Shown piece by piece: positions 24,244 to 63,376 of a stretch of 64,000 nt of DNA. Origin of the DNA: Nitrosopumilaceae archaeon. GTDB taxonomy: Archaea; Thermoproteota; Nitrososphaeria; Nitrososphaerales; Nitrosopumilaceae. The stretch spans positions 1,568,001 through 1,632,000 of the forward strand of contig OZ242365.1 in assembly GCA_965208905.1 (NCBI GenBank). The letters run 5' to 3'. The first letter of the stretch is position 1, and every line of letters begins with the position of its first letter. The notes below the pieces were generated by a model, which was not told the DNA's origin, searched no databases, and worked only from the letters and a program-made list of their open reading frames with translations. Both the position numbers and the translations under genes were made by a program.

Positions 24244-24257
24244 GTAATCTATAAACG
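24244..24257 (+). promoter_or_regulatory. Class II promoter motif
   Basis: GTAATC-TATAAA-CG, with CG at -24/-23 of ATG 24280. Confidence 0.55.
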
Positions 24258-24279
24258 TGGTCATAAACACAACATACCA

Positions 24280-24906
24280 ATGAGAAAAATAATATCCGGA
24301 GTCCTGCTTACCGCGCTAGCACTAGTACTGGTGGCAGAACTTGACCAGGCCCATGCCGAGCTGGCCATCTGGCAGGTTGAGAACAACCCACCCGGTATTG
24401 ACCGCGGCAATGAGTGGCTGACTTTGATAAATCTGGGTGAGTCAGACACCTTTAACGGATATGGCATACAGACGACGCATGGACGTATCGCGAGTCATAT
24501 GGTTCCAACAATCACTCTGGACACATGTGAGTATCACAAGATGATCTTCCCAAGGCAGACCATAGACAACGAGGATGACACAGTAATACTGCACAAGAAT
24601 GAGACAACCATCTACGAGACACCCATCATCAAGGACACCAAAAACAATGACCGTTTCTGGACAAACCCAAATGTGGCGGCGATATGTGATGAACCATCAA
24701 AACCTGCAGAAACCACACATGAACCAGATTCCAGCACATCAGAGACGACATTGGAGCAGCGAGTGCAGGCATTGGAGGAACGTGCAGACAGGACAGATGT
24801 CACAGTTAATGCACTGACGGATAGCATCACACTACTGTGGACGGAGATTGAAAATATAACTGATGTCATAATGACTATTCTTGAATCGCTTGATATCGCG
24901 AGATAA
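24280..24906 (+). CDS. Secreted lamin-tail-domain-like protein with C-terminal coiled coil
   Basis: Signal peptide; IWQVENNPPGIDRGNEWLTLIN resembles the LTD INEV..NP...D...EWVEL.N motif. Confidence 0.7.
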   Translation: MRKIISGVLLTALALVLVAELDQAHAELAIWQVENNPPGIDRGNEWLTLINLGESDTFNGYGIQTTHGRIASHMVPTITLDTCEYHKMIFPRQTIDNEDDTVILHKNETTIYETPIIKDTKNNDRFWTNPNVAAICDEPSKPAETTHEPDSSTSETTLEQRVQALEERADRTDVTVNALTDSITLLWTEIENITDVIMTILESLDIAR

Positions 24907-25382
24907 TCATTTTTTGTTTTTTGAGGGGGTATTGGTTGGTCTTGAAGTCTACGCGCATCTCCTACTTCAACACACGTGGTACGCCGTCTATCTCATCCTG
25001 AGTTTTTCCATTTTTTGGCTAGTATACATTTACGATACATTAATTCGTGCTTGCCCTTGAGCGGAATTGAATATGTACATTTCCAGACAGCCTCAGCTTG
25101 TATTGTATGTTTAATTGACGGTCCCTGAGACTCGTGGTCTCGTAGTCTGCAACGGCAGACAGGATCCGGTTTTAAAGACTGGGCCTTTGAGGAGTATTGC
25201 CAGAACGTTCTATGTAGGTTTGGGTTTGACACCAAACCTTGTGACAACCTGTACCGGCCATCACGTCTCTAACATCTGGAAAGTGTACAGATGCCAAGAT
25301 GAATTTCTCCTCTCTGTTGCTACTTCAGCCTAATGTATAGTGTAGACATTGACTATTTAAGTTCTCTATGAATGGGTAACTC

Positions 25383-28223
25383 CTAGCGCAGCGTTACAGT
25401 CATAGTCCTGACATGCATTACGGCATTCTCCTTGGACTCTGTAATATCACAGGCTTGGCCGGGCGGTGATGTGAGATACACTGTATTGTGTACTGCCTCC
25501 GGCTCGTTCACCACCACCTCAAAGCCCAGGGTTATCGTATCACCGGGCTTGACCTGTACGTGTGGTATGTCCCGCACAATTATGCCTCCCGTGTCCAATG
25601 AAATTGTAGACAATCCGGAACACTTGCCGTTAGGCAGTCCGTACATCCCGACACCAAAGGCCGTTCCAGGCGGCACTGTACCGGGCGCAGTAACATATGG
25701 CTGGCCATGCTCGGGCGCCGGCCCATGAACATATCTGCCGGCTTCAGAGGATGTGGCGTTTAGTGTAATTGGCGCAGAACAATACACGCCAGTAGAACCA
25801 CAGTTGCCGGTTGCCCCATTGACGCGGGCAGTCGCGGTAAGATTCACCTGCAGTGGTGGTACGACCCATGTGAGGTTCGCCGTGCCCGCATTGCGTACCA
25901 TGCCATATGCCTCCGACTGCCAGATTGCATCAAGATCAGTTATCACATCCACATGTACTGCACCCAAACTACGACTTGTCAGGTCGCCGGCCAGTATTGT
26001 TCCATTGTACAGCGGTATTGTACGCGCTCCCGCCGAGACGCTCGACAGCGGTGAGGGCAGTGTTGACACATCATACCAGTGGCATACATTATTTCCTATG
26101 AATGCCACATATCGTACTTCGGGTAAGATTGGTATGTGTATTGCATCACCCGCCGTTATACTCATGCTGTTTGCATAGTTTGTATACGAGGAAGTCTGCC
26201 TACCCAAATGACACGGCAGGCCCAATACCATGTTTGGGTCCTCGGTTATCGATGGATTCTGTAAAGATGCATCAAAGCTATCACCATACAGCCGTACATG
26301 AATTATGCCGGTATCGACAGCAAACGGTATGGTGATGTATAATGATGAGGTTGTTACGCGCTCCGCATTTACGGGATGCCATCTATCATTCAGGTGGTCG
26401 TATACGGCGCCGCTGACATATGGCGTACCGGGCAGGTTGTATTCCGGCGGAGAGCTAATCTCTCTTAGTTTGGGTTTACCACCGTCTATGCCGGCCTGAC
26501 CCATAAAGCAGTCACCATGGCAGAGGCGCCTGTCCATACCGGCAGGTCCGGACCCGCTGGTGGTCAGTCCGTCGCCGTATCCATCCATCACTACCTGTGG
26601 CGTGTATCCCATATCTGCCAAGTCTGCGGTATTATACGTGATGGCATCTACCCAGCCATAATGTGTATGAGGATCATACAGCACACCACTTTTGTACGGT
26701 CGCAAATGAAAGTCGAACGGTCCGGTTGCATTGAATGCATTGCCGCCAAATACCTGTATTCTTTCGGTACCGCTCCCACTACCCTTTGTCGTATCGTCTA
26801 GTATGACGAAAAGGTGGTTTCCAGACGGTATTGAAGCAGGGCGGTATACATTCAGGCCGGGAGTAATAGTCATGGCGCCCGACAAATCAAGGTGTGGTGT
26901 GTTTGTGGATAAATCACATGACGCTGATACGCTGGCAGTTGTTCGTATACTATTGAGAGACCAACTTCCCGTTCCAGTTTGAACACATCTAATGTTGTTG
27001 CCACCGTTATAATATGAGCAACTGGTAGAGCCTGGTACATTGGATGGTGTAGATGGGGTTGAACCGCCCCAGCATGAGGCAGACACCCTATACCCGTTTG
27101 TTGTTGAGGGTACAGTTGGTGTGCCACACCCCCCACTTGTAGTCCTTGTGGTTGACCCGCAGGATGTTGTGCCTGTGCTACTTGAAATTAATTGGGGGGG
27201 ACTGACGGTGTTGTCATATATTTCCGTGAGTCTCGATGCTGAACATGAATATGAGAATCTGGTACTGGATGAAGTAGTTGTACCAGTTACACACATGTCA
27301 TGCTTGCGGTTATCATCGTTGTTTTCAGAATGCAGAACATAGGAGCAGCTGCTGTGTGAGTTTGGCAGTATGGACAAGTCATCATATCTGTTTTGTATTG
27401 TGTGGTCTCCTGCCCTGCTGTGCAGGGGTGAGGGTATTGTGTACGTATCTTGTACAGTACGGCTGCCCGTTCCAGACCATGAGTTGGTCTCACTGATACC
27501 ACAACTACCTGTTGACAGCCAGCCGCGGTAGTGGTCCACCTTAGTTAGATCGTTAGGCAGTGATGAGGTGTCGCTACTTGGGTCGCCAAACCCTATTACC
27601 ACATCCGACTGGCATGTAGTACATCCACGATATATGTAGTATATGGGATCACTCACTACACCAAAGTCCAACCCAACACGGTCACGCGCACTCATACTGA
27701 TGGTATACTCACCATGCGTACCTGATGACAGGCCGATGCTGTTAGTTGAACCAGTCCCCAGCCCGAATCGGGAGTCATCTACGGTTGCAAGTTGTGTGTA
27801 ATTAGCACCAAACCCACTATATGTCGGCATTGCGCCATGTTGTCGCATGACTGTTGAGCCGCCAGATGTGGAAAGCGTGCCAAATGGCTGGTCCCTGAAC
27901 GTATAATCCACGCTATTGTCCCACTGCGCATCGGTTATGACGCGTACCTTGCCTCCGCTAAAACCGGACGTCTCAATGCCCGTCTGCATTGGTGTTATAT
28001 GGTGCGTTGTTCCGTTGACCGCCGTCAGTATAAACATGCCGGCCGGTGGATTCTTTACGGCAAGATGCGCCGTCTCGCCTATTATATTGGCCGGCCTTGG
28101 CCTGTCGGGGGGCAGTATGGGGAACGTGTTACCGTTGTCCGTCAGTATGTGGAACTGCACATCACTTGCATACGATATGGGTATTACACAGAATGCAATC
28201 AAACAGAACAGTATAAGCCTCAA
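25383..28223 (-). CDS. Large secreted protein, paralog family X (Ser/Thr/Gly/Cys-rich insert)
   Basis: Signal peptide; FHILTDNGNTFPI and IHIPILP motifs shared with the 28220 and 56662 ORFs. Confidence 0.8.
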   Translation of the reverse strand: MRLILFCLIAFCVIPISYASDVQFHILTDNGNTFPILPPDRPRPANIIGETAHLAVKNPPAGMFILTAVNGTTHHITPMQTGIETSGFSGGKVRVITDAQWDNSVDYTFRDQPFGTLSTSGGSTVMRQHGAMPTYSGFGANYTQLATVDDSRFGLGTGSTNSIGLSSGTHGEYTISMSARDRVGLDFGVVSDPIYYIYRGCTTCQSDVVIGFGDPSSDTSSLPNDLTKVDHYRGWLSTGSCGISETNSWSGTGSRTVQDTYTIPSPLHSRAGDHTIQNRYDDLSILPNSHSSCSYVLHSENNDDNRKHDMCVTGTTTSSSTRFSYSCSASRLTEIYDNTVSPPQLISSSTGTTSCGSTTRTTSGGCGTPTVPSTTNGYRVSASCWGGSTPSTPSNVPGSTSCSYYNGGNNIRCVQTGTGSWSLNSIRTTASVSASCDLSTNTPHLDLSGAMTITPGLNVYRPASIPSGNHLFVILDDTTKGSGSGTERIQVFGGNAFNATGPFDFHLRPYKSGVLYDPHTHYGWVDAITYNTADLADMGYTPQVVMDGYGDGLTTSGSGPAGMDRRLCHGDCFMGQAGIDGGKPKLREISSPPEYNLPGTPYVSGAVYDHLNDRWHPVNAERVTTSSLYITIPFAVDTGIIHVRLYGDSFDASLQNPSITEDPNMVLGLPCHLGRQTSSYTNYANSMSITAGDAIHIPILPEVRYVAFIGNNVCHWYDVSTLPSPLSSVSAGARTIPLYNGTILAGDLTSRSLGAVHVDVITDLDAIWQSEAYGMVRNAGTANLTWVVPPLQVNLTATARVNGATGNCGSTGVYCSAPITLNATSSEAGRYVHGPAPEHGQPYVTAPGTVPPGTAFGVGMYGLPNGKCSGLSTISLDTGGIIVRDIPHVQVKPGDTITLGFEVVVNEPEAVHNTVYLTSPPGQACDITESKENAVMHVRTMTVTLR

Positions 28224-30670
28224 TTTACCCTCACCGACAACCGCTCTATCATTGTCTCTGCATGCATGGTCTCGTCAGGTCTGCTGTTTGCATATTCTGC
28301 ATGCACGCCGCCGTAGAATGTGATTGTGGACTGCACCTTTATGAGTATGGGGGTACTGCTTGTATGCTGTATGGGGATTGTGCGATATTCCGGCGCAAAG
28401 TCCCACTCTGCATATGATACGTGCCGGCAGTCCTCGCCTACCGTTATGGGGGTCTGGGCCGCCACCAATGGCGTTAAATCACTGACCGACAGCCCGCCTA
28501 TCCTCTGGTATCCGCCGGCCACGGGCACCTCTATGTCTACAAGTACGGCATATCGTATGTCCTGCGCTGTATTGTGACGCGGCGGTGTTGTTACGGGCAT
28601 CCTGTGCCAGTCGCACGAAGTTCTCTTGGCCCCGGTATATCTGTCACCCCCTCCCGGTACCACACCATCGATTATGAGACTGCCTGAGAGCTTTAAATCA
28701 AAGTCCATCACGTGCGTGCCGCTGCCCGGCAGAACAACTTCGGTGTCCAATATGTCCATGATTAGGATATTTGATGTTGTGTATGGTCTTGCCTGTCCGT
28801 GCAGGCCGCTATCGATGGTGGTTACGTGCCGAACGCCGCCAAAACTTGCATGCGCGCCCTGCACAAAGAAGTTGTCCATGTTGTACTGTCGGAACTCATC
28901 CACGCCATGCGTCCTCATACACACCTTGCCGTACCAGGGCAGTATCGGTATGTTTATGAGCGTCCTGTCCACGCCATACTCCCCTATCAGATAATCCATC
29001 CCCAGCCACCCTGAACCGGGTGGTGGGTTCCAGCTGTGCGGTTGTGTGGTATCATCGATGAACCGTGCGCAGTCGTGTATGCTGGCTATCAGATACATCT
29101 CCTGGACGTTTATCGAGCCGGTTACGGGTATTACCCCGTATGCCTGTATTAGGTTTAGTTTGCCCGAGTCGTAGTATACCTCGTCCGTACTTGTAGGCCT
29201 TGAGGTGACAAACACATTTCCATGATTCCGGACATCCGGACCATTCAGCACCTCGCTGTTGCGGGGATCATACACTATACCAGTGGCCGGGTTCAGTGAT
29301 GGCAGGCTGCGGCCATCAAATACCGTTATGCAGTACTTGTAATCCGCCTCTCCATGCGCATCCAAGCAGTCGGCCCCCAACAGTCCGCCCGCGCCCGAAG
29401 CCCCCGACTGTCTGACGTGGGAGATTGTGGTGGTAGTGGTGTTCGGTGTGAGTTGCGGGTATGTTTGTATGTGATTCGCAATATCGTGCAGATCGGTCTC
29501 CGTATAATACCCCAGATGCGTGAACGCGTCGTGTAATACGACTACGGAGTTGCTGTCTACTACAGTACTGGCATCAACACTAAATGTGTGATCAAAGGCG
29601 GCATTTACCTGATGCGCGGTCTGCGCCATGAGTATCTGCATCTTTATGGACCCGCCCACCAGGTCTACCACTATTATGGCCTGGCGTGGGGTCTGCGCGT
29701 TCTCGTATATTGTCAGTCCGGGACGCAGTGGTAGGGAGTCGAATAGTTGCATATTTCCATCATACCACCGATATGAGTAGTTCTCCATCAGACAGCCATG
29801 GGACTGCAGACGAAAGTATGCATCATCCAATTGTATTATCTCCGTGTTGTTGTGCGCGGCGCCAGGACATGTGGTAGTATCATATGTGGTTACATCCAGG
29901 ATTGCGTTGTTGTGGCCCGGGTATGGTGTATGGGATATGGTCGGAACTGTTGTTGGCCAGTAGCGACTGGTTGTAACACCATACAACTCGCCGCAACCCG
30001 TGTAGTTTATCGAGTCTACGGTGCAGTTCCCGGAGGGCCGTGGAACGGTGGACAGTCCCAATATGTTACCCCAGTAGGGCATGACACCGATGGTGGCGCG
30101 CCCCCTATCCGTACAGTCCAGACAGATTGTGTTTATCGCATAGTGGTCATACAGGCCGTCCAAAAATATTACTGCGCGCCCACTATTTTTGAACTCGACA
30201 TATTCTTCCGTAGTACCGTTGTTGTAAAATTCATACCCTATGCTACCTGACTGTATTGTGATGTTTTCGATGCCGCTTGGCCAGTGTGGTGGCGCAGACT
30301 CCCGCAGATATAGGTGTGGTTTTGGGTATAGGCGCATCTCGCCACCCAGGGGTGCCCAGTTCGGTATGCCGTATGTCTCCCCCTCACCCCAATTGTTTAT
30401 GATGTATGTCACACCTGAACTAACTGTGTTGTATTGCGCCGCCTCGGATATCTTGTTGCCACTTGCTATGAGTCCGCCTACGCGCTGAAATTCGACGTAT
30501 GGTGAGGATACTATATCCGTGGTGGGTGTGTCATCTGCAGGTTTTATCTCAATTAGGTTGCCCCTGTCTGTCAGGGCCAAAAATTCGGGGATAGTCGGTG
30601 TCTGCGCCAGCGCGCCCGGTATCATGCATACGGCAAATACTACCAAACATGCTGCTGCAACACATCTCAT
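28220..30670 (-). CDS. Large secreted protein, paralog family X
   Basis: Start moved to ATG 30670 (signal peptide, class II motif); FLALTDRGN, DYLIGEY, INIPILP. Confidence 0.8.
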   Translation of the reverse strand: MRCVAAACLVVFAVCMIPGALAQTPTIPEFLALTDRGNLIEIKPADDTPTTDIVSSPYVEFQRVGGLIASGNKISEAAQYNTVSSGVTYIINNWGEGETYGIPNWAPLGGEMRLYPKPHLYLRESAPPHWPSGIENITIQSGSIGYEFYNNGTTEEYVEFKNSGRAVIFLDGLYDHYAINTICLDCTDRGRATIGVMPYWGNILGLSTVPRPSGNCTVDSINYTGCGELYGVTTSRYWPTTVPTISHTPYPGHNNAILDVTTYDTTTCPGAAHNNTEIIQLDDAYFRLQSHGCLMENYSYRWYDGNMQLFDSLPLRPGLTIYENAQTPRQAIIVVDLVGGSIKMQILMAQTAHQVNAAFDHTFSVDASTVVDSNSVVVLHDAFTHLGYYTETDLHDIANHIQTYPQLTPNTTTTTISHVRQSGASGAGGLLGADCLDAHGEADYKYCITVFDGRSLPSLNPATGIVYDPRNSEVLNGPDVRNHGNVFVTSRPTSTDEVYYDSGKLNLIQAYGVIPVTGSINVQEMYLIASIHDCARFIDDTTQPHSWNPPPGSGWLGMDYLIGEYGVDRTLINIPILPWYGKVCMRTHGVDEFRQYNMDNFFVQGAHASFGGVRHVTTIDSGLHGQARPYTTSNILIMDILDTEVVLPGSGTHVMDFDLKLSGSLIIDGVVPGGGDRYTGAKRTSCDWHRMPVTTPPRHNTAQDIRYAVLVDIEVPVAGGYQRIGGLSVSDLTPLVAAQTPITVGEDCRHVSYAEWDFAPEYRTIPIQHTSSTPILIKVQSTITFYGGVHAEYANSRPDETMHAETMIERLSVRVN

Positions 30671-30691: not shown

Positions 30692-30705
30692 CGTTTTTGG
30701 ATTAC
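30692..30705 (-). promoter_or_regulatory. Class II promoter motif
   Basis: GTAATC-CAAAAA-CG, with CG at -23/-22 of ATG 30670. Confidence 0.65.
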
Positions 30706-39977: not shown

Positions 39978-40028
39978 ACCCTCCTGATGCACGATACAAT
40001 ATAAGGCGCAATATGGCATTTTCCACAC

Positions 40029-51746: not shown

Positions 51747-52100
51747 TTATTCATTACGTTTAAGCGGCGATATGACATCATGCTCAAAGTGCAGCAACAT
51801 CCTGTTCATGTACAGGGAGATATGCACCCTGTCGCCCTTCCGTATCATACCCGACAGTTTTTTTGGGAGTGATATCACCCAGTAATATCTATACATTATG
51901 CCGCATAACTCCCGTATCTTTACTATGCGTATTGGTATGCCGTCCACATTGTCTATGCGGAATGTATCAGAATTATGTATGTTGATGTATGCATCCTCAC
52001 CGTTTTGTTCAATGTATTTTTTGGCCTGTTTGAACGGCAATCGCAGCCGGTAATATGGTGTGCCATCTATATACTGCATCTGCACACGCCTCACCTTCAT
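51747..52100 (-). CDS. Putative AbrB-like (swapped-hairpin) DNA-binding protein
   Basis: YYRLRLP...YWVISLPKKL...IRKGDRVHI. Confidence 0.5.
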   Translation of the reverse strand: MKVRRVQMQYIDGTPYYRLRLPFKQAKKYIEQNGEDAYINIHNSDTFRIDNVDGIPIRIVKIRELCGIMYRYYWVISLPKKLSGMIRKGDRVHISLYMNRMLLHFEHDVISPLKRNE

Positions 52101-52122: not shown

Positions 52123-52146
52123 CGCAAAAAGGTTAACATTTTTGCG
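52123..52146. promoter_or_regulatory. 24-bp palindrome forming back-to-back class II-like promoters
   Basis: CGCAAAAA-G-GTTAAC-A-TTTTTGCG; outer CGs lie 22-24 nt from ATG 52100 (-) and ATG 52168 (+). Confidence 0.65.
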
Positions 52147-52167: not shown

Positions 52168-53163
52168 ATGTGGTGCAGCATACGACTGGTCGAACACCAA
52201 CAAGAGAAGCGAAAGGAGTTGGTGCAGTCGATACTCTCCTATGTGAGACTTGCGGCATTCCTCACGTACAGGGATGTAGAGGGCTTCGTACGGTATTCAA
52301 TCTGGTTTGAGGACCAGTATCTGAGTTATGTGCTGGGGCTGCATGCGGCCAAGCCAGATCTGGGAGGTGTTGAGATTACACCGACTGATACGCCATCCAT
52401 ATTGGAGAACTGCATGATTGCCCAGGAGATGGAGATGCGTGGGTACGGGGCTGCCGAACTACCGCTTGATACGGGCATACGCTCGGCGACCGCCGCACTG
52501 GGTACGCAGATTACCGACACAGCATACAGGCTGCTGATATGCCACAGGGTTGAACGGTCTGATTTGATCGACGGGTACGTAAACAGTGGAGGCAGGCCGA
52601 CATCAATGTACAGGAAGGTGGCGGGCATGGCTGCGCGCGAGGCCATGGGATTCTTTGACAGCTCGCCCAGGCCTGCGGCTGAAAAACCCACCATCGATGC
52701 CAAAAAACCGCCATACACGCATACGCGCATCATACTGGGGGCGAATACCGAAGAGCACATAACAATACTTCGTGACTCATTTCCCGCCGGCAGTCTGAAG
52801 AGACTGAACCGCATACCGCCCGTACAAGTGGCCGCGCAGGCATGTATAATACCAAAGGTGCGGACAAGCATGATTCACTTTCCCGTGTTCAATGATGCCG
52901 AACTGGAGAGTCTGGAGATCCTGCCGACCAATGTGACCGAAGTTCCCATGGAGTACGGACGCGCCATCACATCCACAACGCAGCCCCCCACCGTATTTAT
53001 GGATTTGATAAACGACATAATACATACATCCATGCCCAGGCGCGTCCCGCTATATCTGGACATATCCGAAGAGCCCGACGACGCATCAATGCAGCCTGAG
53101 TTTCCAGTACAAATCATAGGCGGTGAACCCGAGTTTCCCATCAGTATGATTCCACACGCCTGA
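52168..53163 (+). CDS. Hypothetical protein
   Basis: Long ORF; start set by the palindrome spacing. Confidence 0.7.
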   Translation: MWCSIRLVEHQQEKRKELVQSILSYVRLAAFLTYRDVEGFVRYSIWFEDQYLSYVLGLHAAKPDLGGVEITPTDTPSILENCMIAQEMEMRGYGAAELPLDTGIRSATAALGTQITDTAYRLLICHRVERSDLIDGYVNSGGRPTSMYRKVAGMAAREAMGFFDSSPRPAAEKPTIDAKKPPYTHTRIILGANTEEHITILRDSFPAGSLKRLNRIPPVQVAAQACIIPKVRTSMIHFPVFNDAELESLEILPTNVTEVPMEYGRAITSTTQPPTVFMDLINDIIHTSMPRRVPLYLDISEEPDDASMQPEFPVQIIGGEPEFPISMIPHA

Positions 53164-53464: not shown

Positions 53465-56161
53465 ATGGGTTTGGATATACCAAACACTGAGAAATATCGT
53501 GTAAAGGCAGCCAGATTTGTGGAGCGCTGGCGCGGTGAGACATATGAGCGAGGTGAATCACAGACGTTCTGGAATGAGTTCTTTGATATATTCAGTAAGG
53601 ACAGACGTCTGGTGGCCCTCTTTGAGAGACGGGCCCGCCGATTAAAGGGACGTGGTTTTGTGGATTTGTTCTGGCCGGGTAAACTAATTGTAGAACAAAA
53701 AAGTGCTGGCCGTTCCATACAGGATGCCATGAAGCAGGCAGAGGAGTATACCATCAAACTACCTGAAAATGAGATACCGCGATATCTGCTAGCGTGTGAC
53801 TTTGCCAACTTTTTACTAGGAGACCTTGAGGATGATACAGAGGAAGAGTTTACCTTAGAGGAGTTACCAGACAAACTACACCTATTTGGATTCATGACTG
53901 ATGATGCAAGGAGTGGTCCTGATGTTGACCCTGTAAACCAAAAAGCTACCGGTATAATGGGTAAGATATACGATGGGTTGGTGCGAAACAACTACCCCAT
54001 ACAAGACAGTGGGAAGATGCTAACACGGCTCGCATTCTGCATGTTTGCCGATGATGCAGGCATATTCGAGCATGGTACATTCAGACGATTGTTTGGAAAG
54101 TATGATGTGGAGTCTACGGGTGGAGCCATTACGCATATGTTTGAGATATTGAATACGCCCAAGGAGAAGCGCCAACATACACTACGTGATGAGTTGGCCG
54201 CATTTCCACACGTAAACGGTGACCTGTTCGCTGAAAACATAACATCTGTTAGTCTAGACATGGAGTTAAGAAAATTTTTACTTGAGGCCGATGGTTATGA
54301 ATGGTCCAATGTAAACCCGGCCATATTTGGCGGGATGTTCCAGTCGGTGATGGACGCTGGTGAGCGGCGCCATATGGGAGCACATTATACGACTGAAGAG
54401 AACATACTGAAGGTGATCAACCCCTTGTTCATGGATGAGTTGAGGTCTCAATTCGAGAAGATTAATTCAGAGAATGTTAACCAACGCGCACGACTTGAGG
54501 AGTTTCAGGAACATTTAGCATCACTAAAATTCTTTGATCCAGCCTGTGGAAGTGGCAACTTCCTGTCAATCGCGTACAGAGAGTTGCGCAAATTGGAGTT
54601 GAAGGTTATTGAACTATTGCATGATAAGAGGGTAAAGCGGCTTGATGTCACAGGACTATCAAAGGTTGACGTTCACCAGTTCTACGGAATTGAGATAATG
54701 CCATTCTCAGCCCAAATTGCCGAGATCTCACTTTGGATGACCGACCATCTAATGAATAAGGAGTTGGGTAGAATGTATGGGATAGCATACGCCCGCATAC
54801 CGCTCAAAAAATCGCCCAACATAGTATGTAATGATGCACTGGAGATGGACTGGAATGACATACTACCTGCACATGAATGCAATTACATTCTAGGCAATCC
54901 TCCATATGAGGGCTCCAAAGTCATGACTTCACAACAGCGTGAGCAGGTCCGGCGGATAGCCAACCTAGGCAGGTCCGGCGGCACTTTAGACTATGTGGCT
55001 GCATGGTGTATAAAGGCGGCCCGGTATACACAGGACAATCGTCATACACGTATCGGATTTGTCGCAACTAATTCAATAACGCAGGGGGAACAGGTAGGGC
55101 AACTTTGGCCTACACTATACAGTATGGGTCTAGACATTGAGTTCGCTTACAAATCATTCAAGTGGGATAGTGAGGCGCCCGGTATGGCTCATGTACATGT
55201 GGTGATAATCGGACTCGGAAGAGATGTGAGATGTCGTAGACTATTCCATACTGGTGAATATGAGCATATAGATGACAGTCCGCCAAGGATATCGCCATAT
55301 TTGTTGGGCGCCAACCGGGTGCGTGTAGTGCATGAGTCATACAAACCACTGAATGGTTTGTCGGACATGAGGATGGGTTCCAAGCCGATCGACGGTGGCC
55401 ATTACATATTTACCGATACCGAAAGGGAAATGTTTCTTCAAACAGAACCCAAAGCCAATCAATTGATAAGGCAGTATGTGGATGCTCGGGGATTTCTTCA
55501 CGGCAAACGCCGTTGGATATTGGCGCTACAAGAGGCTGAGCCAAACGTACTGAGAATGCTACCACGCGTAACAGAACGAATAAACCTAGTGAAGGCGCAT
55601 AGACTAGCAAGTAAGGCTCCATCTACAAGGGATTTGGCTGGTACACCAACATTATACCACCTTAACGTGTTACCGGAGAAACCTTTTCTGGCTATCCCGG
55701 AAGTGAGTTCGGAGAAACGCAAGTATGTGCCCATTGGGTATATCGAGCCTCCAGCAATACCGAGCAATCGCCTCATGGTTGTGTTAGATGCAAGTCTTGG
55801 ACTCTTTGGACTGCTTACATCCAAGATGCATATGACTTGGCTGAATTATGTAGGTGGTCGGTTGGAGACGAGATATACGTATTCAAAAGGCGTAGTGTAT
55901 AACACATTTCCCGTCCCGGACTCACCACTGAATGTCTTGGAGCCTTATGCTCAGGCAGTACTAGATGCACGTGCTGCACACCCAAAATCCACTCTGGCAG
56001 ACCTGTATGATCCTGATATAATGCCGCCGGATTTGTTCAAGGCGCATCGTAGACTTGATAAACATGTTGACAGATTATACCGGAAGGAACCATTCAGGTC
56101 TGATGATGGACGGATGGAGTTCCTATTGGCGCGGTACGAGGACATGATTCATGCTTCATGA
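53465..56161 (+). CDS. MmeI-like type IIL restriction-modification enzyme
   Basis: ESQTFWNEFF, VDLFWPG...EQKS, GAHYT, DPACGSGNFL, GNPPY, TLADLYDP. Confidence 0.92.
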   Translation: MGLDIPNTEKYRVKAARFVERWRGETYERGESQTFWNEFFDIFSKDRRLVALFERRARRLKGRGFVDLFWPGKLIVEQKSAGRSIQDAMKQAEEYTIKLPENEIPRYLLACDFANFLLGDLEDDTEEEFTLEELPDKLHLFGFMTDDARSGPDVDPVNQKATGIMGKIYDGLVRNNYPIQDSGKMLTRLAFCMFADDAGIFEHGTFRRLFGKYDVESTGGAITHMFEILNTPKEKRQHTLRDELAAFPHVNGDLFAENITSVSLDMELRKFLLEADGYEWSNVNPAIFGGMFQSVMDAGERRHMGAHYTTEENILKVINPLFMDELRSQFEKINSENVNQRARLEEFQEHLASLKFFDPACGSGNFLSIAYRELRKLELKVIELLHDKRVKRLDVTGLSKVDVHQFYGIEIMPFSAQIAEISLWMTDHLMNKELGRMYGIAYARIPLKKSPNIVCNDALEMDWNDILPAHECNYILGNPPYEGSKVMTSQQREQVRRIANLGRSGGTLDYVAAWCIKAARYTQDNRHTRIGFVATNSITQGEQVGQLWPTLYSMGLDIEFAYKSFKWDSEAPGMAHVHVVIIGLGRDVRCRRLFHTGEYEHIDDSPPRISPYLLGANRVRVVHESYKPLNGLSDMRMGSKPIDGGHYIFTDTEREMFLQTEPKANQLIRQYVDARGFLHGKRRWILALQEAEPNVLRMLPRVTERINLVKAHRLASKAPSTRDLAGTPTLYHLNVLPEKPFLAIPEVSSEKRKYVPIGYIEPPAIPSNRLMVVLDASLGLFGLLTSKMHMTWLNYVGGRLETRYTYSKGVVYNTFPVPDSPLNVLEPYAQAVLDARAAHPKSTLADLYDPDIMPPDLFKAHRRLDKHVDRLYRKEPFRSDDGRMEFLLARYEDMIHAS

Positions 56162-56630
56162 TATCCTAGTACCTGTCATAGTCGGCCTAGGTGGAGGTAT
56201 ACTAGGTGGTGTGATCGGTGTTCTTGGTAGTATGCGTCTGGCCCAGAAACAAACACAAAGACAGAAGGCTGAAGAGCGTCGAAAACGCATCCAAGACCAG
56301 TTGGTGACATACGACACGTTGTGGCGGTTCCTAAAGGAGCGCAACAGTAGGTGGCAGTCACATCCTGCATCCACTAAAATAAAGCAGTATACACATTGGT
56401 TTACGCTGGACTCCTACGAATGGCTGCGTAAGCACTTTGAGCAATCAGGTAATTTGCTGACGAGTGAGACATTCTCCATATATCTTGATTTGTTAAAGAA
56501 GGACACATTGGGCATGTCTGCGTTGGCAAGTGGTAAGCCAAACCCATTCATCATGGCAAACTACATGAAACTACAAGATGATGCAGAACAGATGTGCGCC
56601 AACCTAAAAAAGACATTGGATAATTTTTGA
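56151..56630 (+). CDS. Membrane-anchored hypothetical protein
   Basis: Gly-rich TM helix followed by a helical domain. Confidence 0.65.
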   Translation: MLHDILVPVIVGLGGGILGGVIGVLGSMRLAQKQTQRQKAEERRKRIQDQLVTYDTLWRFLKERNSRWQSHPASTKIKQYTHWFTLDSYEWLRKHFEQSGNLLTSETFSIYLDLLKKDTLGMSALASGKPNPFIMANYMKLQDDAEQMCANLKKTLDNF

Positions 56631-56660: not shown

Positions 56661-56661
56661 A

Positions 56662-59286
56662 CTATCGCACATCTATACTGAACGTCTTGAAGATAAACTG
56701 CGCAACAACACTCTCAAACTCCGTACTGGTGCATAATGGTGTGAAAGTGCCGGTTACACTTTGTATTGAAAGACGCACCTCAACAGGTATGTGCTCGCCC
56801 TGATGCGCCGGCACGGCAATAGTCCTTACCGTATAGCCTGAATCATCCGGCATACTGACGAACCTCCCGTAGCACCTATCGCTATATTTGGCGTACTCTT
56901 CCTGCTGCACATCATACGTATCAACCGTCCAACTGCCAAGACTGGTAACGGACTGGCCTACCCACACCTCACCGGTTGCGGTGAGTGTCCCATTATACCA
57001 TTTGCTGATGTTTCCCGTCCAGCCGGTATTATCCCCCATACCCAGAGCGGCAACCGACACGCCAATACTGGTAGTTATGTCCAGAGACAGCACGCCATCA
57101 CGCGGGGACTGCACCCCTCCCCTATACACGTATGTGCCCACGGACCCCGCATTAAATCCCCTATCCAGGGGCGCAACACCCTCCCCACCACCAAGTGATA
57201 AATATGAACTGCCAAACGGCAGGCCGTACAGCAAATACTGCGACTCCAGGATGTTGGGGGCTATCACCGTGCACAGATATGGGCGGTTTCCCAGTATCGG
57301 CACGTGTATGCTGTCACCGGCAACATAATCTCCATCCAGATAGTCCAAGTATGTGCGGCTGGCCTTGTATGCATTCTGCATTAGCATATTATGTTCAATG
57401 CCGCCTGTCGTGTTTGGGGCAAACAACAAAACCCCCAACATGTCTAGATCATACCCACCTGAACCATACGCTTCAAGTACTACACCCCTCAAATCCCCAG
57501 CCGTCACTGTTGACTCCGTGGGGCCGCACGGCAGGCTGGATAGATACGTACCGGATATACGGGTCGGTTTTACGACTGGTATTGTAGCATACATGTCTAC
57601 AATGACAAAACCATCTCTTGGCAACTCCACACCGTACAACTCCCAGAATGGATTCTTCTCTATGGCCATCCACGGTTCTATGTACGGCATGGGCAGATGC
57701 GTACCATCCCAGAATTTGAACATACCTATGTCGGTGCGCAGCATCTTGTGGTTCCGTATATCGTATATTTCAGACGACATGAGATTGCTTCTGTCTGATG
57801 CGCCGAGCAGTCTGAATTTGTCGGCAGCCGAATAATTAAACCCGTAGAAGTGTGGCTCAAACGGATCAAACGATGCAGAAGAGGGAGCCCACATAAAGTT
57901 AGTTCTGTTGGAATCGACAAACCTCACCTTGTAAGGCTTCCAATCAGTGGACGTATCATCATACAGGAACCCATGATATATCGGGTCGCCCGTATTGCTG
58001 TGCGCAATCCACCTGGTAGTTGTGTTTGTCATTTGGTTTATTTCATTTCGTACGGTCTGCATCTCGCGCAGTACGGGATGGTCTGCCGGTATCTCGCCCC
58101 TGCCGGGTATTATGAGCAGGTGTCGGTCGGCATTGTGTATTACGGCGGGCTTGTTTGCACGGTTGTAGATGCCGCCGTCAAACGCATGGCAGCACTCAGT
58201 GGCCCCACTGAGACGAACCTGCAGCTTGGCATCCACACCGGGGCTCGTAACTACTATCGCGCTGTTTTGTTCGGCGCTGTATATGGCATTCCAGCCCGGG
58301 TATAATGGCTGCCATGCCCTGGACTGGACGGCGCCAGTCTGCAGAGGGTCGGCGCCGCCACCCGTGCAGGCACCCACTATACTGTTGCCCGATATGGCCA
58401 GGTTGGGTGTGCAACCCCCGCCGTCCTGCCAGTATCCTATGTAATCACTCCGCGCGTTGGGCAGTGTGGAGTGCGACTCATGTATGCTGTCCCATGCAAG
58501 TCCTGTTAGGTTGCCCGCACGAAACACGTATGGTACGGCGGGTGTTACCGCCCAGGAACTGGTATGCCTGTACCCCAGAGTCTCAAAACTTCTCAGGGGC
58601 TCCACGTATGTGGCATGTGATGTATCGCGGCATTCGGGGCATGTAAACATAACCTCAAGCGTTGAGGTACTATTCGGCAGTCTCATGTGTATTATGGTGC
58701 GGCCATCAACAGGGAGATCCAACACGTGTCCGTACTGTGTGGTATTGGCGATGTACAGTGTGCTGTTTCGGAAGTTGTCCACACACCTTGTGCCGCCTAG
58801 ATGATTGCAGCTTCCCAGTATGTCTATTGAGGGGTGGGGGCCAACACGTGCAGTGGCCATATACGGCACGACGCCATGCCTTGCAATTTCGCCGACCGGC
58901 ATGTTTGCGTATAGATACTGTGATGCGCCGCCCCACTCGCTTATTATATCCGCCCGCATGTATGTTCGGGTTTTGTCATATGGCGGTAGTGGGTTTACGG
59001 TACCGGCCTCATCAAAATGTATTGTGGGCCCGGTGGTGGACGTCCTGCCGGCTGCCACTGCAATCATGGAATCCAGCGGCTCCATGTTCAGAAACGGCGC
59101 TGAATCGAATCCGGGCGGCCGCTCCGGGGGCGGTCCTATTATTGGGTATACGTTGCCCAAATCCGTAACAACCCAGAACTGTGTTATGTTCTGCGCCGTT
59201 TGTCCAAAGACGGCCGGCAGTATGCCGGCAGACAGTATTATTGCCATAACGCCAGCATACATGATGATGAAGGACCAACCTGCCAT
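56662..59286 (-). CDS. Large secreted protein, paralog family X
   Basis: Signal peptide; FWVVTDLGNVYPI, DYLDGDY, IHVPIL. Confidence 0.8.
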   Translation of the reverse strand: MAGWSFIIMYAGVMAIILSAGILPAVFGQTAQNITQFWVVTDLGNVYPIIGPPPERPPGFDSAPFLNMEPLDSMIAVAAGRTSTTGPTIHFDEAGTVNPLPPYDKTRTYMRADIISEWGGASQYLYANMPVGEIARHGVVPYMATARVGPHPSIDILGSCNHLGGTRCVDNFRNSTLYIANTTQYGHVLDLPVDGRTIIHMRLPNSTSTLEVMFTCPECRDTSHATYVEPLRSFETLGYRHTSSWAVTPAVPYVFRAGNLTGLAWDSIHESHSTLPNARSDYIGYWQDGGGCTPNLAISGNSIVGACTGGGADPLQTGAVQSRAWQPLYPGWNAIYSAEQNSAIVVTSPGVDAKLQVRLSGATECCHAFDGGIYNRANKPAVIHNADRHLLIIPGRGEIPADHPVLREMQTVRNEINQMTNTTTRWIAHSNTGDPIYHGFLYDDTSTDWKPYKVRFVDSNRTNFMWAPSSASFDPFEPHFYGFNYSAADKFRLLGASDRSNLMSSEIYDIRNHKMLRTDIGMFKFWDGTHLPMPYIEPWMAIEKNPFWELYGVELPRDGFVIVDMYATIPVVKPTRISGTYLSSLPCGPTESTVTAGDLRGVVLEAYGSGGYDLDMLGVLLFAPNTTGGIEHNMLMQNAYKASRTYLDYLDGDYVAGDSIHVPILGNRPYLCTVIAPNILESQYLLYGLPFGSSYLSLGGGEGVAPLDRGFNAGSVGTYVYRGGVQSPRDGVLSLDITTSIGVSVAALGMGDNTGWTGNISKWYNGTLTATGEVWVGQSVTSLGSWTVDTYDVQQEEYAKYSDRCYGRFVSMPDDSGYTVRTIAVPAHQGEHIPVEVRLSIQSVTGTFTPLCTSTEFESVVAQFIFKTFSIDVR

Positions 59287-59307: not shown

Positions 59308-59321
59308 CGTTTTTGGATTAT
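59308..59321 (-). promoter_or_regulatory. Class II promoter motif
   Basis: ATAATC-CAAAAA-CG, with CG at -23/-22 of ATG 59286. Confidence 0.65.
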
Positions 59322-60151: not shown

Positions 60152-60787
60152 ATGCAACTTGTGTTGGAGAAGGACTGTTTGCACCACCTCGCGGCGATGT
60201 TGGGTGAGATGGACGAGGTGGTAGTCAGCCCAAAGCGCGGTGCGCTGGTTGCGTATGATATGGCCAGAACGCGGCGCATCTCGTATATCATACCGGAGAG
60301 TGATGAGGATGACACTGGCCTGCAGGGTATTATATTCGCCAAGATAGCAAAGCGGATACGCGATACATGTGATGTAAGCATTACACGGGATGGATGTATT
60401 CTACGGTCGGGCAGCACAACATACAAAATACGCCCGTTTATGGCGTCCGAATATCTGCCTACACCGGCTGCGGATCACACAGGCCAGGTTACGGTACGGG
60501 CAGAGGATGTGAAGGAGGCCCTCAAGGACATCCAAATATCAGGCTCAGGCGCCGTCGTAATATCAATACATGATAATATGGTGCGGTTTAGCGGCGTGGG
60601 GGCATTCGACGCGGAAATAGAGATACAGTCCACACATCATACGGGCATGGGATATTCCCGCCTGGACTGCGAGTTGCTGATGCTGTGCGCGCAGCACATG
60701 TACGGGGATATCACACTGCATCTATCGCCAAAGAAACCCACGGCAATCAAGTTTGGCGGTTTCACGTACCATCAGGCGGCGATGTGA
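60152..60787 (+). CDS. pcna: Divergent PCNA-like sliding clamp
   Basis: DEVVV....LVAYDMART...; two-domain spacing; ITLHL...P...YHQAAM ending; directly upstream of MCM. Confidence 0.65.
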   Translation: MQLVLEKDCLHHLAAMLGEMDEVVVSPKRGALVAYDMARTRRISYIIPESDEDDTGLQGIIFAKIAKRIRDTCDVSITRDGCILRSGSTTYKIRPFMASEYLPTPAADHTGQVTVRAEDVKEALKDIQISGSGAVVISIHDNMVRFSGVGAFDAEIEIQSTHHTGMGYSRLDCELLMLCAQHMYGDITLHLSPKKPTAIKFGGFTYHQAAM

Positions 60788-62574
60788 TGATACCTGACAT
60801 ACACAAGACGCTCTCCGAGCGATACGTTGCCATTCCACATGCCGACCTGCCCGACGGCTTTACCGACAATCCCGAACCCGTGCTTTGGAAACTAATCGAC
60901 GAGTATAAGGAGTGTGTGTTCCGTACATCTCCCGAGCTGGTGCAGAGGCACAATGACTGGTCCGTGCGCATAGGGGTGGACGCAGACAACACCATACCCG
61001 TAAAGGATGTGGGCGTATCGCAGACAGGCAGGTATGTGCAGATACGCGGCATGGCGGCGCGCATAGGCCAGCCAACCCCGCGCGTTCTGGAGATAGCATG
61101 GGTGTGCCAGAAGTGCGAAAATGTGACGCGCAAGCCGCCGTCGGCGGGAAAGCCCGTGTGCTCGTGCGGTTCGCAGAACTTTAAGGTTGATCAGGACGGA
61201 TCAACCTTTGTTGACTCGCAGACAGTCATACTGGCCGAGAGGTTTGAGGAGATAACCGGCTCTAGGCCCCCAAGACTGCTGAGCTGCAGGCTGGACGGAA
61301 CGTTGATTCAGATACTCAACCCCGGAGATCGGTGCGTGGTGGGCGGCATACTCCGGATACTTGAGACCAAGCATGGATATGAGTATGAGTTGCAGGCCAA
61401 CAACGTCACACCATATAGGGAAAAGACGGTGGAGCCGCCACAACTGGAGGGTGACATACTTGAGAAGCTGGCAAAGTCGTTCGCGCCCCGCATATACGGC
61501 CATGAGATGCTAAAAAAGTCCATCATACTGTTGCTTGTAGGCGGCTCGGGTGCGATGGGTGGCCGCACAAACATAAACATGCTGCTTGTGGGGGATCCCG
61601 GGATTGCAAAGTCCTCACTTCTGCAGGATGCAGCGGACGTGGCGCCGCTGGGCAGATATACATCGGGACGCGGCGCGACCGCAGCGGGTTTGACGGCCGG
61701 CGTGGCGCGAGATAAGGACGGTGTGATGTATCTGGAGGCTGGAGCCGTCGTCTTGACCGATGGTGGTACTGTGTGTATTGATGAGTTTGACAAGACGGCG
61801 AAGGCAGACCGTACAGCCTTACACGAGGTCATGGAGCAGCAGACCGTCAGCATAACAAAGATTGGCACGATTGTCACACTGAAGGCTCGCGTATCCATAC
61901 TGGCGGCCGCCAACCCCAAAAAGTCTTTCTGGGACGACTCACTGTCGTTGGCTGAGAATATCAGTCTGCCCGACAGCCTCCTGACCAGGTTTGACTTGAT
62001 ATATGTCCTCCGGGACAAACGTGATGCGGATACGGACCGGAAGGTTGCGCGCCACATACTGCGCGGCGGGAGTGGGGATATTATGCAGCCTGCGGAGATT
62101 ACCGCGTATCTGGATTCGGTGCGCGGTCTTGCACCTGAGATGTCCGAGGAGGCGGCCGCGGCCCTTGAAGACTACTATACAATTGAGCGCCAAAAGTCCG
62201 TTGAGATAAGTATTACAGCGCGCCAACTGGAGGCTGCGCGCCGTCTTGCAGGTGCGCGGGCCAAAATATACCGGCGCGATGCAATAACCACAGATGACGT
62301 AAAGCATGCACTATACCTGCTGAAGAACATGATACAATACACACTGATTGATCCTGAGACTGGCAGACCCGACTACCTCAAGGCCACAACAGGGAAATCG
62401 CGCTCCGTTGTGCGCACCATAGACGAGGCGGTATCGTCTATGGGTGGGGACTTTACGGCCACTGATCTGGATGTACAGATGCCGTTTCTGGACATAGAGC
62501 GCGCTCTGGAGAAACTGCACCAGCAGGGCATACTGATGGAGTCCAAGCCGGGCATATACCGTGTGGTGCGTTAA
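60784..62574 (+). CDS. mcm: MCM replicative helicase
   Basis: Zn finger CQKC..CSC, GDPGIAKS, LEAGA, IDEFDK, EVMEQQ, TRFD, ITARQLE. Confidence 0.96.
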   Translation: MMIPDIHKTLSERYVAIPHADLPDGFTDNPEPVLWKLIDEYKECVFRTSPELVQRHNDWSVRIGVDADNTIPVKDVGVSQTGRYVQIRGMAARIGQPTPRVLEIAWVCQKCENVTRKPPSAGKPVCSCGSQNFKVDQDGSTFVDSQTVILAERFEEITGSRPPRLLSCRLDGTLIQILNPGDRCVVGGILRILETKHGYEYELQANNVTPYREKTVEPPQLEGDILEKLAKSFAPRIYGHEMLKKSIILLLVGGSGAMGGRTNINMLLVGDPGIAKSSLLQDAADVAPLGRYTSGRGATAAGLTAGVARDKDGVMYLEAGAVVLTDGGTVCIDEFDKTAKADRTALHEVMEQQTVSITKIGTIVTLKARVSILAAANPKKSFWDDSLSLAENISLPDSLLTRFDLIYVLRDKRDADTDRKVARHILRGGSGDIMQPAEITAYLDSVRGLAPEMSEEAAAALEDYYTIERQKSVEISITARQLEAARRLAGARAKIYRRDAITTDDVKHALYLLKNMIQYTLIDPETGRPDYLKATTGKSRSVVRTIDEAVSSMGGDFTATDLDVQMPFLDIERALEKLHQQGILMESKPGIYRVVR

Positions 62575-62616
62575 AGCCATGATGTGGCTTAAACGTCTTC
62601 GACCTGTATGTATTCC

Positions 62617-62826
62617 ATGAGATTTGACAATGCCGCCAAAATAGTAGCGCAGTCAACATTGATGACTGCAATAGTCCAAAGATATGGGGAGAATTGGCAG
62701 AACATTGGGTGGATACGCACGATGCTTGCCGGGTATCTCGGCGCCCTTGAGGGTACCACATCACCTGATGAGGTGCTAGACGAGATGGATGATATGGCAC
62801 GGCGTCTCGGCATGGTGGCAAACTGA
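62617..62826 (+). CDS. Small hypothetical protein
   Basis: ATG 28 nt after TTAAACG. Confidence 0.6.
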   Translation: MRFDNAAKIVAQSTLMTAIVQRYGENWQNIGWIRTMLAGYLGALEGTTSPDEVLDEMDDMARRLGMVAN

Positions 62827-62857
62827 CTCCTTAAAAGGGATGGGTATGTAATACCGC

Positions 62858-63376
62858 ATGAAAGGTACTATACGGGTGCAAAACATCATGGCACTCGCCA
62901 GCACGGGCCAAAAACTGGATCTAAAACATATAGCCGGACATATACCTGATGCCGTATATACAGATGACTTTCCAGGCATACGGTACCGCATACACGAGTT
63001 GAACTCCAGTGTGTTGTTGTTCCGCTCGGGCAACATAGTCTGCGCGGGGGCCAAGTCCGAAGAACATGTACACAGGGTATATGAGCATATATGCGATATA
63101 CTACGCAGACTCGGCTATGACACACAACAACCAAACATCACAATAACCAACATCGTGGCAACTGCAAACATCGGCCGCGGGCTGGACATGCAGTATGTCT
63201 CCGACCTGCTGCCCGGAGCAAGGTATGAGCCGGAGATGTATGCAGGCGTTACGTATCATGCCAAAAACAGGGTAGTCGCGCGCATACATGCATCAGGCAA
63301 GATAATCTTTGTCGGCGCCCGCTCCATGCAGGACATCGTAGATGCATACAACAACATACGCTCACTGCTGGCATAA
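62858..63376 (+). CDS. tbp: Divergent TATA-binding protein
   Basis: Two TBP repeats: QNIMA...FPG...LLFRSG...GAKS and TNIVA...YEPE.YAG...IHASGK...GARS. Confidence 0.92.
   Translation: MKGTIRVQNIMALASTGQKLDLKHIAGHIPDAVYTDDFPGIRYRIHELNSSVLLFRSGNIVCAGAKSEEHVHRVYEHICDILRRLGYDTQQPNITITNIVATANIGRGLDMQYVSDLLPGARYEPEMYAGVTYHAKNRVVARIHASGKIIFVGARSMQDIVDAYNNIRSLLA

Follow-up and report, generated by a model that had tools for sequence, protein, structure and literature searches.

Does a mobile element in an archaeal chromosome direct its own basal transcription, with general factors of its own reading a promoter class that the host does not use? The question is raised by a 64,000-nucleotide stretch of a Nitrosopumilaceae chromosome (the window; positions 1568001–1632000 of the single-contig, 2,214,775-bp genome called G000 here, whole-genome GC content 45.6%). 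The window covers the left third of a continuous GC-rich block (about 50% versus 45.6%) of about 200 kb, at genome ~1,585,000–1,785,000. This block, referred to as the island, looks like a conjugative-type element, similar to an integrative-conjugative element (ICE). The original prediction, made from the letters of positions 24244–63376, held that envelope and secreted genes share a TATA-poor promoter motif and that an element-encoded pair of TATA-binding protein (TBP) and transcription factor B (TFB), both with altered DNA-contact residues, reads it. Its promoter part was borne out: a distinct promoter class, termed class II, precedes secreted, membrane and transfer genes and is confined to the mobile-element-like island. 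The class II motif is very probably a functional island-specific promoter element; the basis of this conclusion is its position, its island restriction, the class of genes served and its conservation. Coordinates refer to the window unless they are marked as genome positions.

Class II sites in the window

Class II denotes the motif at the core-promoter position, with the consensus ctGTAAYC-(C/T)WWWAA-CG. The pattern TAAYMYWWWWDCG has nine matches in the window, whereas 100 dinucleotide-preserving shuffles average 0.66 and never exceed 4. All seven motif sites described in the original prediction are present with the sequences reported, and the ATG of a long open reading frame (ORF) lies 21–22 nt past the CG in each. 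Scores given below are those of a position matrix (PWM), for which a threshold of at least 14 bits was set.

The site at 24244–24257 (plus strand; GTGTAATCTATAAACG, GTAATC-TATAAA-CG; PWM 20.4) lies 22 nt before the ATG of 24280–24906, which encodes a 208-aa protein with a hydrophobic N-terminus. Its paralogue at genome 1675600–1677519 and its orthologue in G316, a genome of the same GTDB genus, are also motif-bearing. Three further sites are on the minus strand. That at 30692–30705 (GTGTAATCCAAAAACG, GTAATC-CAAAAA-CG; PWM 26.7) is 21 nt before the ATG at 30670 of an 816-aa secreted protein (28220–30670), whose G316 orthologue (47% identity) has CAAACC-CATTAA-CC; this site probably also drives the gene for a 946-aa protein at 25383–28223. 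The site at 43164–43177 (TAGTAACCCAAAAACG, GTAACC-CAAAAA-CG; PWM 20.8) is 22 nt before the ATG of 41705–43141, the product of which (478 aa) has eight predicted transmembrane segments. The third, at 59308–59321 (CTATAATCCAAAAACG, ATAATC-CAAAAA-CG; PWM 21.2), is 21 nt before the ATG of 56662–59286, encoding an 874-aa secreted protein; CAAACC-CATTAA-CG precedes the G316 orthologue (45% identity).

A fourth minus-strand site, at 47241–47254 (CTGTAACCTATTTACG, GTAACC-TATTTA-CG), is located 21 nt before the ATG of 45582–47219. This gene encodes a 545-aa, signal-peptide-like protein and opens an operon whose last gene is tfb. In G316, ATAACC-CTTTTA-CG lies upstream of the orthologue (59% identity), and the gene order is the same. 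The remaining two sites of the original prediction overlap in a 24-bp palindrome (CGCAAAAAGGTTAACATTTTTGCG) at 52123–52146, between the divergent genes 51747–52100 (minus strand) and 52168–53163 (plus strand). Both resemble class II (TAACC/A-TTTTTG-CG) but are weaker, and their ATGs lie at distances of 21 and 22 nt; since they fall below the PWM threshold, they are regarded as possible class II sites. An eighth site lies to the left of the range covered by the original prediction, at 19402–19414 (plus strand; TAACACTTTAACG; PWM 16.2); the ATG 21 nt after it opens the gene for a 64-aa coiled-coil protein (19436–19630). This site is the leftmost in the island.

Position, restriction and genes served

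A loose form of the pattern has 518 matches in the whole genome, and the distance from these to a downstream ATG-initiated ORF peaks at 21–22 nt. The extended consensus emerges once an A/T-rich hexamer is required. Forty-six genome positions reach the PWM threshold; 22 of them have an ATG 18–26 nt downstream that opens an ORF of at least 50 aa, and 20 of these 22 are within genome 1,587,402–1,778,868. The genes behind the two outliers (genome 559,934 and 1,531,289) encode one small membrane and one small coiled-coil protein, kinds that by eye resemble those of the island. Motif frequency, which the original prediction had proposed to compare between element and host upstream regions, differs sharply: the motif stands before 11 of the 123 first genes of the island and before none of the 1226 of the host.

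The genes served are of a few kinds. By a crude Kyte-Doolittle test, 15 of the 22 products have a hydrophobic segment, N-terminal or internal; five are coiled-coil proteins of 62–76 aa, and two are the VirB4-like and FlaI-like ATPases. Class II thus precedes virB4, the operon of the FlaI-like ATPase and VirD4, an operon containing a TadC gene, and genes for large secreted, small membrane and small coiled-coil proteins. The commonest type is the acidic coiled-coil family of 62–76 aa (e.g. MADRELLERLYAQLEDARR...), which has a class II site 21 nt upstream; its loci are at genome 1531323, 1587436, 1730358, 1769679 and 1778604, and on contigs C2, C179, C28 and C40 of the related genome G070. The single member scanned gave no Pfam match.

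How class II relates to host promoters is best seen from its register. TATA-like hexamers of host genes (TAAATA/TTAAAT) peak at −28/−29 from the ATG, and an expectation-maximisation (EM) profile of 1221 host upstream regions reads AAA-nn-yWTAWAT from −35. This geometry suggests that transcripts are mostly leaderless. In class II, G-TAAYC occupies about −36 to −31, the hexamer −30 to −25 and the CG −24/−23. For leaderless transcripts these positions fit an archaeal BRE/TATA core promoter, which lies some 23–37 nt before the start of transcription. Laid on the host frame, TAA falls over AAA, CC over the two unspecified bases, (C/T)WWWAA over the TATA core and CG over the last two TATA positions. 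In class II, then, a short A/T core is flanked by fixed G/C bases and by a constant heptamer that resembles the TFB recognition element (BRE). The original prediction, according to which five of its seven sites have no TATA box, was too strong on this point; the hexamers are 5/6 or 6/6 A/T, and because they sit in the exact host TATA register class II is not TATA-less.

Conservation in related genomes

For a strict 15-mer (TGTAAYCYWWWAACG), 401 genomes of the class were scanned, the reversed pattern serving as a control. The sample includes the unpublished genomes G282, G132, G230, G364 and G326, which count in the class-wide tallies only. G000 gave 14 matches (reversed control 0), its congeners G070 and G153 gave six each, G345 two, and all others at most one. 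Of the loci outside the genus, 12 were inspected; all lack an ATG-ORF at a suitable distance, and several represent a single conserved, coding-like sequence. A general feature of promoters in the class or in the host was accordingly rejected as an explanation of the motif, on the 401-genome tally, on these loci and on the host first genes. A relaxed pattern (AACCSWWWWACG) is uninformative at low GC (14 matches in G000 versus 26 for the reversed control) and was used for G316 only.

The 166 kb of G316 that were sampled have a GC content of 57–71%, mostly 61–71% (about 65%), compared with 45.6% in G000. This spread is unusually wide for one genus. In the 2.5 Mb of this genome the relaxed pattern has 19 matches versus 8 for the reversed control, and 11 of the 19 are in one 125-kb island (2,327,184–2,452,173), where sites of the form (N)WAACC-SWWWWA-C(G/C) lie 21–27 nt before an ATG. 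The genes behind them encode signal-peptide proteins, membrane proteins or VirB4. Three more matches lie in 1,026,017–1,038,315, around a third gene of the TFB_1690 type (see below). The idea that class II is simply the general promoter of G316 was rejected, as 14 of the 19 matches are in two stretches that total about 137 kb.

For nine of the 11 G316 motif genes the best match in G000 is itself class II-bearing, at 44–77% protein identity, and a further one corresponds to gene two of a G000 class II operon. Such retention before orthologues within one genus, at 65% GC, is a phylogenetic footprint and argues for a selected, functional cis-element. The promoters of the island-type VirB4 genes (type A) illustrate it: GTAACC-CTAAAA-CG in G000, AAACC-CAAAAA-CG in G316 and GTAACC-CATTAA-CC in G401, with flanks that differ by eye. 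A second VirB4 type, 44–47% identical to that of the island, was found in G113, G117, G153, G258, G270, G335 and, as a second copy, in G316; it does not occur in G000, the G153 copy has no class II motif upstream, and this type possibly belongs to a different element family.

General transcription factors of the island

Genome-wide there are four TBP genes and nine TFB genes, and the island holds two of the former (near genome 1631k and 1747k) and four of the latter (near genome 1613k, 1666k, 1670k and 1690k). Element-encoded paralogues are therefore present as had been claimed, but a single pair understated them.

The TFB of the window, TFB_win, is encoded at 44848–45600 on the minus strand (ORF 44848–45744), with a probable GTG start at 45591 or 45588. 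It has two cyclin repeats (PF00382, E 1.1e-24, two stretches) with a C-terminal helix-turn-helix and aligns with the TFB core of 1AIS over residues 121–295. The recognition helix (VSTVSVRLRRQDL) reads AAVSTVSVRLRRQDL where the P. woesei TFB of 1AIS has ARVTEVTVRNRYKEL. The match of the putative N-terminal zinc ribbon to PF08271 is weak (E 0.004, below the cut-off), and a CxC...CxxC arrangement (CRCGG...CTKCG) is visible, which is kept in the G316 orthologue. From this putative ribbon to the first cyclin repeat there are about 52 residues, compared with about 100 in host TFBs, so that the B-reader/linker region is shorter by about 48 aa. Both peculiarities named in the original prediction, the short B-reader and the VSTVSVRLR helix, were thus found again. 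The G316 orthologue is 56% identical and has the same short linker and the helix VSTVSMRLRRQDL; between the two proteins the recognition helix is conserved as VSTVS[V/M]RLRRQDL. Helices of the TFB_1690 family are variable (IADTTLANRY, IAETTLYNRY, VAETTLSMRY).

That tfb belongs to a class II operon, as had been proposed, agrees with the gene arrangement. The probable GTG start overlaps the stop codon of the 545-aa gene, and tfb is therefore predicted to be read from the class II promoter at 47241–47254. The arrangement in G316 is alike, with the TFB_win orthologue after that of the 545-aa secreted protein and a class II site upstream of both.

The TBP of the window, TBP_win, is encoded at 62858–63376 on the plus strand. 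It contains two TBP repeats (PF00352, E 3.4e-40, two stretches) and aligns with P. woesei TBP (1AIS/1D3U) at E 1.3e-26. The Phe pairs of TBP kink the TATA box. In TBP_win repeat 1 keeps FPG and LLF (F38 and F55), with CAG in place of CTG; in repeat 2 (YEPEMYAGVTYHAKNRVVARIHASGKIIFVGARS) the Phe pair is changed to Tyr128 and His144, since in comparison with the host paralogues FPG became YAG, L(L/I)F became RIH and TG became VG. This agrees with the original reading of the protein. Phe occupies the Tyr128 column in 109 of 114 aligned TBPs and the His144 column in 107, and 97 have Phe at all four positions. Among these sequences, the state Phe-Phe-Tyr-His (FFYH) occurs only in TBP_win and in two metagenomic homologues (92% identical; contigs of 5.6–6 kb), which were found by a word-index search. 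No relative between 92% and 45% identity was among the best 150 of 1.84 billion cluster representatives searched with HMMER, no homologue above 40% identity and no YAG/RIH-type TBP was found in the 400 other genomes of the class, and a JGI metagenome scan returned 75 pattern stretches without a relative of TBP_win.

A second promoter type in the island

The tbp gene of the window does not have a class II site. As stated in the original prediction, it has a class I promoter, the decamer CCTTAAAAGG at 62829–62838 (plus strand), 19 nt before its ATG. An identical decamer precedes the second island tbp (genome 1746888), so both island tbp genes carry this distinct, TATA-containing promoter; that of TFB_1690 is CCTTATATA. 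Island promoters are generally of the type CC-TTWWAW (CCTTAAAAGG, CCTTATATA, CCTTTTAAGG), not of the host type AAA-nn-TTTAAATA, and the same forms occur in G316. CC-(C/T)W5 is at the TATA position of 27 of 123 island first genes versus 40 of 1226 in the host, and runs of eight A/T are found before 13 of 123 versus 328 of 1226. This second, island-typical type would serve housekeeping genes of the island, including both tbp genes and two tfb genes.

Which factors read class II

That TFB/TBP encoded by the element, and not host factors with an added regulator, read class II is given a probability of about 0.5. It is suggested by the conserved bases, which fill the TFB–TBP–DNA footprint and differ from the host consensus, and recognition by element factors is favoured because the island also carries six general-factor paralogues. 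Class II itself is very probably the core promoter (BRE, TATA and TATA 3' flank) of a transfer and surface regulon on a large integrative-conjugative-like element, and one or more of the element's TFB/TBP paralogues would read it and so give the element autonomous control of its transfer genes. The best candidate for the reader is the TFB_win family, since both elements have its gene in a class II operon and keep its recognition helix. If TFB_win does read class II, the arrangement of the tfb operon would be autoregulatory.

Several points weigh against this. G153 and G070 each have six strict sites before close homologues of island genes, in the absence of an island-type TFB or a type-A VirB4. 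In those compared, the homologues are 87–95% identical in amino acid sequence to the G000 genes and the sites are scattered; so close a relationship to G000 makes them a poor guide to selection. The G153 copies look partly decayed, with one gene of 339 instead of 816 aa and two of six sites without an ORF. Type-A VirB4, TFB_win-like and TFB_1690-like genes co-occur in G000, G316 and G401 only, out of ten genomes of the genus, which is consistent with element factors as the readers but weak evidence, since these three genomes are kin and not independent. Scored on the host profile, class II sites range from −0.4 to 4.3 and so resemble weak host promoters, for which host TBP/TFB might suffice; strong host promoters reach at least 6–8, and for random sequence the median is −4.5 and the 95th percentile 2.8. 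The PWM was built from island sites and the island counts obtained with it are circular, unlike the host zero and the strict-pattern counts; gene calls are crude ORF calls, and transcription starts at class II sites are placed from geometry only.

Some of these points feed the main competing explanation, in which host TBP/TFB initiate at a weak, short TATA and the conserved flanks (ctGTAAYC and, on the 3' side, AACG) are the operator of a sequence-specific regulator, element- or host-encoded, that switches the transfer regulon. We consider this possible but doubtful. Beside the low host-profile scores and the motif-bearing G153 and G070, it can account for the A/T hexamer holding only the smaller part of the information content and for an imperfect direct repeat, TAAC(C)...(A/T)AACG, with a spacing of about 9 bp. 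On the other hand, the conserved bases fill the exact BRE and TATA-flank positions at a fixed 21–23 nt from the ATG, the palindrome alone shows dyad symmetry, the analysis identified no candidate regulator, and the six island general-factor paralogues would be left without an assigned role. Recognition by the element's own factors has to be distinguished also from the narrower proposal that the Tyr/His TBP is adapted to a TATA-poor class II box and acts as a master switch, with the element TFB, in a positive-feedback cascade. The substitutions are real, rare and kept by the two metagenomic homologues, tbp is under a class I promoter while tfb is in a class II operon, and the altered repeat presumably points to the BRE-proximal side of the box, at which class II carries C in place of T. 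Yet G316 has class II on 11 genes and three island TBPs with Phe at all four positions, and G153 keeps the motif with a single type of island TBP that is TBP2-like and all-Phe. The causal tie between the altered Phe pair and the motif is consequently unsupported. With no homologue of TBP_win above 40% identity in the 400 other genomes of the class besides, the motif is far more widely distributed than this protein, and the proposal is unlikely.

Less probable still is that class II is a legacy of style, the ordinary promoter look of a GC-rich source lineage of the island that is read by ordinary factors with no special regulation. The island is indeed GC-richer than the host, with CC-(C/T)W5 more frequent and long A/T runs scarcer in the counts given above, but in G316, at 65% GC, class II is also confined to islands. 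Chance, or a recent duplication of paralogous 5' regions, was rejected. As duplication would leave them, two sites (genome 1730130 and 1778435) share an identical stretch of at least 56 nt; among the sites, the sequences from CG to ATG and upstream of the motif differ, the window matches far exceed those of the shuffles and the reversed-pattern control has none, and the motif is conserved at 44–77% protein identity across a 15-point GC shift.

Recognition by element factors leads to a broader and more tentative proposal, to which we give somewhat less than even odds: a family of large archaeal conjugative elements with orthogonal basal transcription, in which the element's own TFB (possibly with its TBP) would read a private GTAACC-CWWWAA-CG promoter on which host factors perform poorly. 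The element would turn on its transfer and surface genes autonomously, with autoregulation through the position of tfb in a class II operon, and the TBP without a complete set of Phe pairs would be a lineage-specific refinement. If true, this would be the first equivalent of an 'alternative sigma' on an archaeal mobile element for which both factor and cis-code are identified. Why many archaea have several TBP/TFB paralogues is a long-standing question, and clear pairs of factor and cis-element are rare. Here the promoter class is sharply defined (16–19 nt, about 22 sites in G000), conserved across elements of 50% and 65% GC, and linked to six extra general-factor genes, and TFB/TBP promoter selectivity is directly testable with a few recombinant proteins and oligonucleotides. 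The motif can furthermore serve as a practical marker for transfer regulons and decayed element remnants in sponge-associated and other Nitrososphaeria.

Gene content and borders of the island

The left third of the island corresponds to about 17000–64000. Only an approximate left edge can be given: the last host-like genes, cdvA and acs, stop at 16268, and class II sites start at 19402. A VirB4-like ATPase (AAA_10 and P-loop_TraG domains) is encoded at genome 1632452–1634287, a T2SSF/TadC-like protein at genome 1679452–1681347, and a T2SSE/FlaI-like ATPase carrying an intein-like insert at genome 1753300–1755375. The latter is class II-driven and 691 aa long, as is its G153 homologue, and the insert matches PF14890 at E 3.7e-5, below the cut-off. 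Directly 3' of it is a VirD4/TraG-like ORF (genome 1751097–1753355) with TraG-D_C and TrwB_AAD_bind domains. Further island genes encode a primase-like protein, ribonucleotide reductase, methylases, a DUF499/DUF1156/SNF2 cluster and insertion sequence (IS) elements. The DUF499, DUF1156 methylase and SNF2-family helicase genes form an operon (genome 1646366–1654584), a defence-like cluster within the island, which is preceded by a near-class II site (GATAACC-TTAAAA-CG) 20 nt before the ATG.

A Pfam scan of 24244–63376 identified TBP, TFB, Rad50, Mre11, a split HerA, NurA, RadA, MCM and Hjc, as well as an MmeI-type enzyme, a Fic protein, a PLD nuclease and a trypsin-like protease; several large proteins had no family match. 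The repair genes are rad50 (33461–35419), mre11 (35416–36513), nurA (38979–40028) and radA (40045–41043), with a HerA-like gene in two adjacent ORFs, 37560–38282 (240 aa) and 38296–38982 (228 aa); the MCM helicase is at 60685–62574 on the plus strand. Host copies are elsewhere, with the Mre11-Rad50-HerA-NurA set at genome 1.201–1.207 Mb, MCM at 0.778 Mb, Hjc at 1.978 Mb and RadA at 2.194 Mb. Mre11, Rad50, HerA, NurA and MCM of the island are merely 29–50% identical to these (35% for MCM, compared with genome 777738–779492), whereas RadA is 90% identical to the chromosomal protein (genome 2193877–2194830), which suggests that radA was recently captured or converted. Fragments of NurA (114 aa, 91% identity) and RadA (80%) are found at genome 1776194–1777403, near the right edge. 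A 159-aa ORF comes after the MmeI-type restriction-modification enzyme (898 aa) at 53465–56630, and at genome 1259091–1259894 there is a fragment of this enzyme with an 80%-identical copy of the 159-aa ORF.

The borders of the island are approximate because neither a PF00589 integrase nor attachment (att) repeats were found. PF00589 had no match in the whole genome (99.6% complete; control genomes all matched; other integrase families were not searched), which is unexpected if a XerA-type recombinase is present. The only repeat shared by the two island edges is an IS with a transposase of the rve type, present in two direct copies of about 1.26 kb (longest exact stretch 986 bp) at 20450–21712 and genome 1766003–1767265; these copies near both ends could mediate rearrangement. 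tRNA genes lie within the island at genome 1664528–1664679, 1672832 and 1722105, and a tRNA-Ser called with the anticodon ACT abuts tRNA-Arg(TCG). Such genes may be carried by the element or may sit at junctions within a composite one, and the island itself may be composite. In sponge and marine metagenome runs, parts of the window are found again as small shares. A CdvA gene, a cupredoxin gene and kinship tables assign the genome to Nitrososphaeria, in a family whose genomes are mostly 1–2.5 Mb.

Comparison with known systems

Bacterial phages and ICEs carry alternative sigma factors or single-subunit RNA polymerases with a matching private promoter class. The island is similar in having a promoter-recognition component of its own; its machinery differs, being archaeal TBP/TFB and not sigma, and the island, known here from its sequence, gives no evidence of temporal classes.

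Closest to the island are the ICEs of thaumarchaea. All those identified by Krupovic et al. encode TFIIB (2019; PMC6563490), which private promoter reading would explain. As described there, they share with the island the pair of VirB4 and VirD4/TraG, a FlaI/PilT-type ATPase, a TadC-like protein, MCM-type replication genes and one or more element TFIIB/TFB homologues. The island is about three times as large (about 200 kb versus a median of 64 kb; PMC6563490) and has four TFBs and two TBPs, while the main text of PMC6563490 mentions neither TBP nor TATA nor promoter. ParB is next to TFIIB in most, not all, of the known elements (PMC6563490), whereas the island is without a ParB domain, the sole PF02195 match of the genome being outside it at genome 820885. 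Unlike those ICEs (PMC6563490), it gave no PF00589 match and no att site. Element-encoded TFBs were thus already known, and the promoter class and the element TBPs appear to be new; in the literature consulted there was no conserved private promoter class on an archaeal conjugative element, no ICE-borne TBP and no TBP lacking one Phe pair in such a setting, though the supplementary tables of PMC6563490 might list ICE TBPs.

Selection of core promoters by particular TFBs has been shown in haloarchaea, for the heat-shock promoter of hsp5 and TFB2/TFBb (Lu et al., 2008; PMC2396416). As proposed for the island, particular BRE/TATA sequences are read there by particular TFB paralogues, so that the core promoter carries the specificity (PMC2396416). 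The haloarchaeal factors are chromosomal stress factors with an experimental link to their promoters (PMC2396416); in the island, factors and promoters are together on a mobile element and the link is inferred. In Sulfolobus the alternative factor TFB3 controls pili and DNA import (2018; PMC6101591). It has no DNA-binding domain and is a co-activator (PMC6101591), whereas island TFBs keep the cyclin repeats and the helix-turn-helix, TFB_win being shortened in the B-reader. The likeness is one of output: an alternative TFB paralogue switches on genes for pili and DNA transfer in Sulfolobus (PMC6101591), and would do the same for the island.

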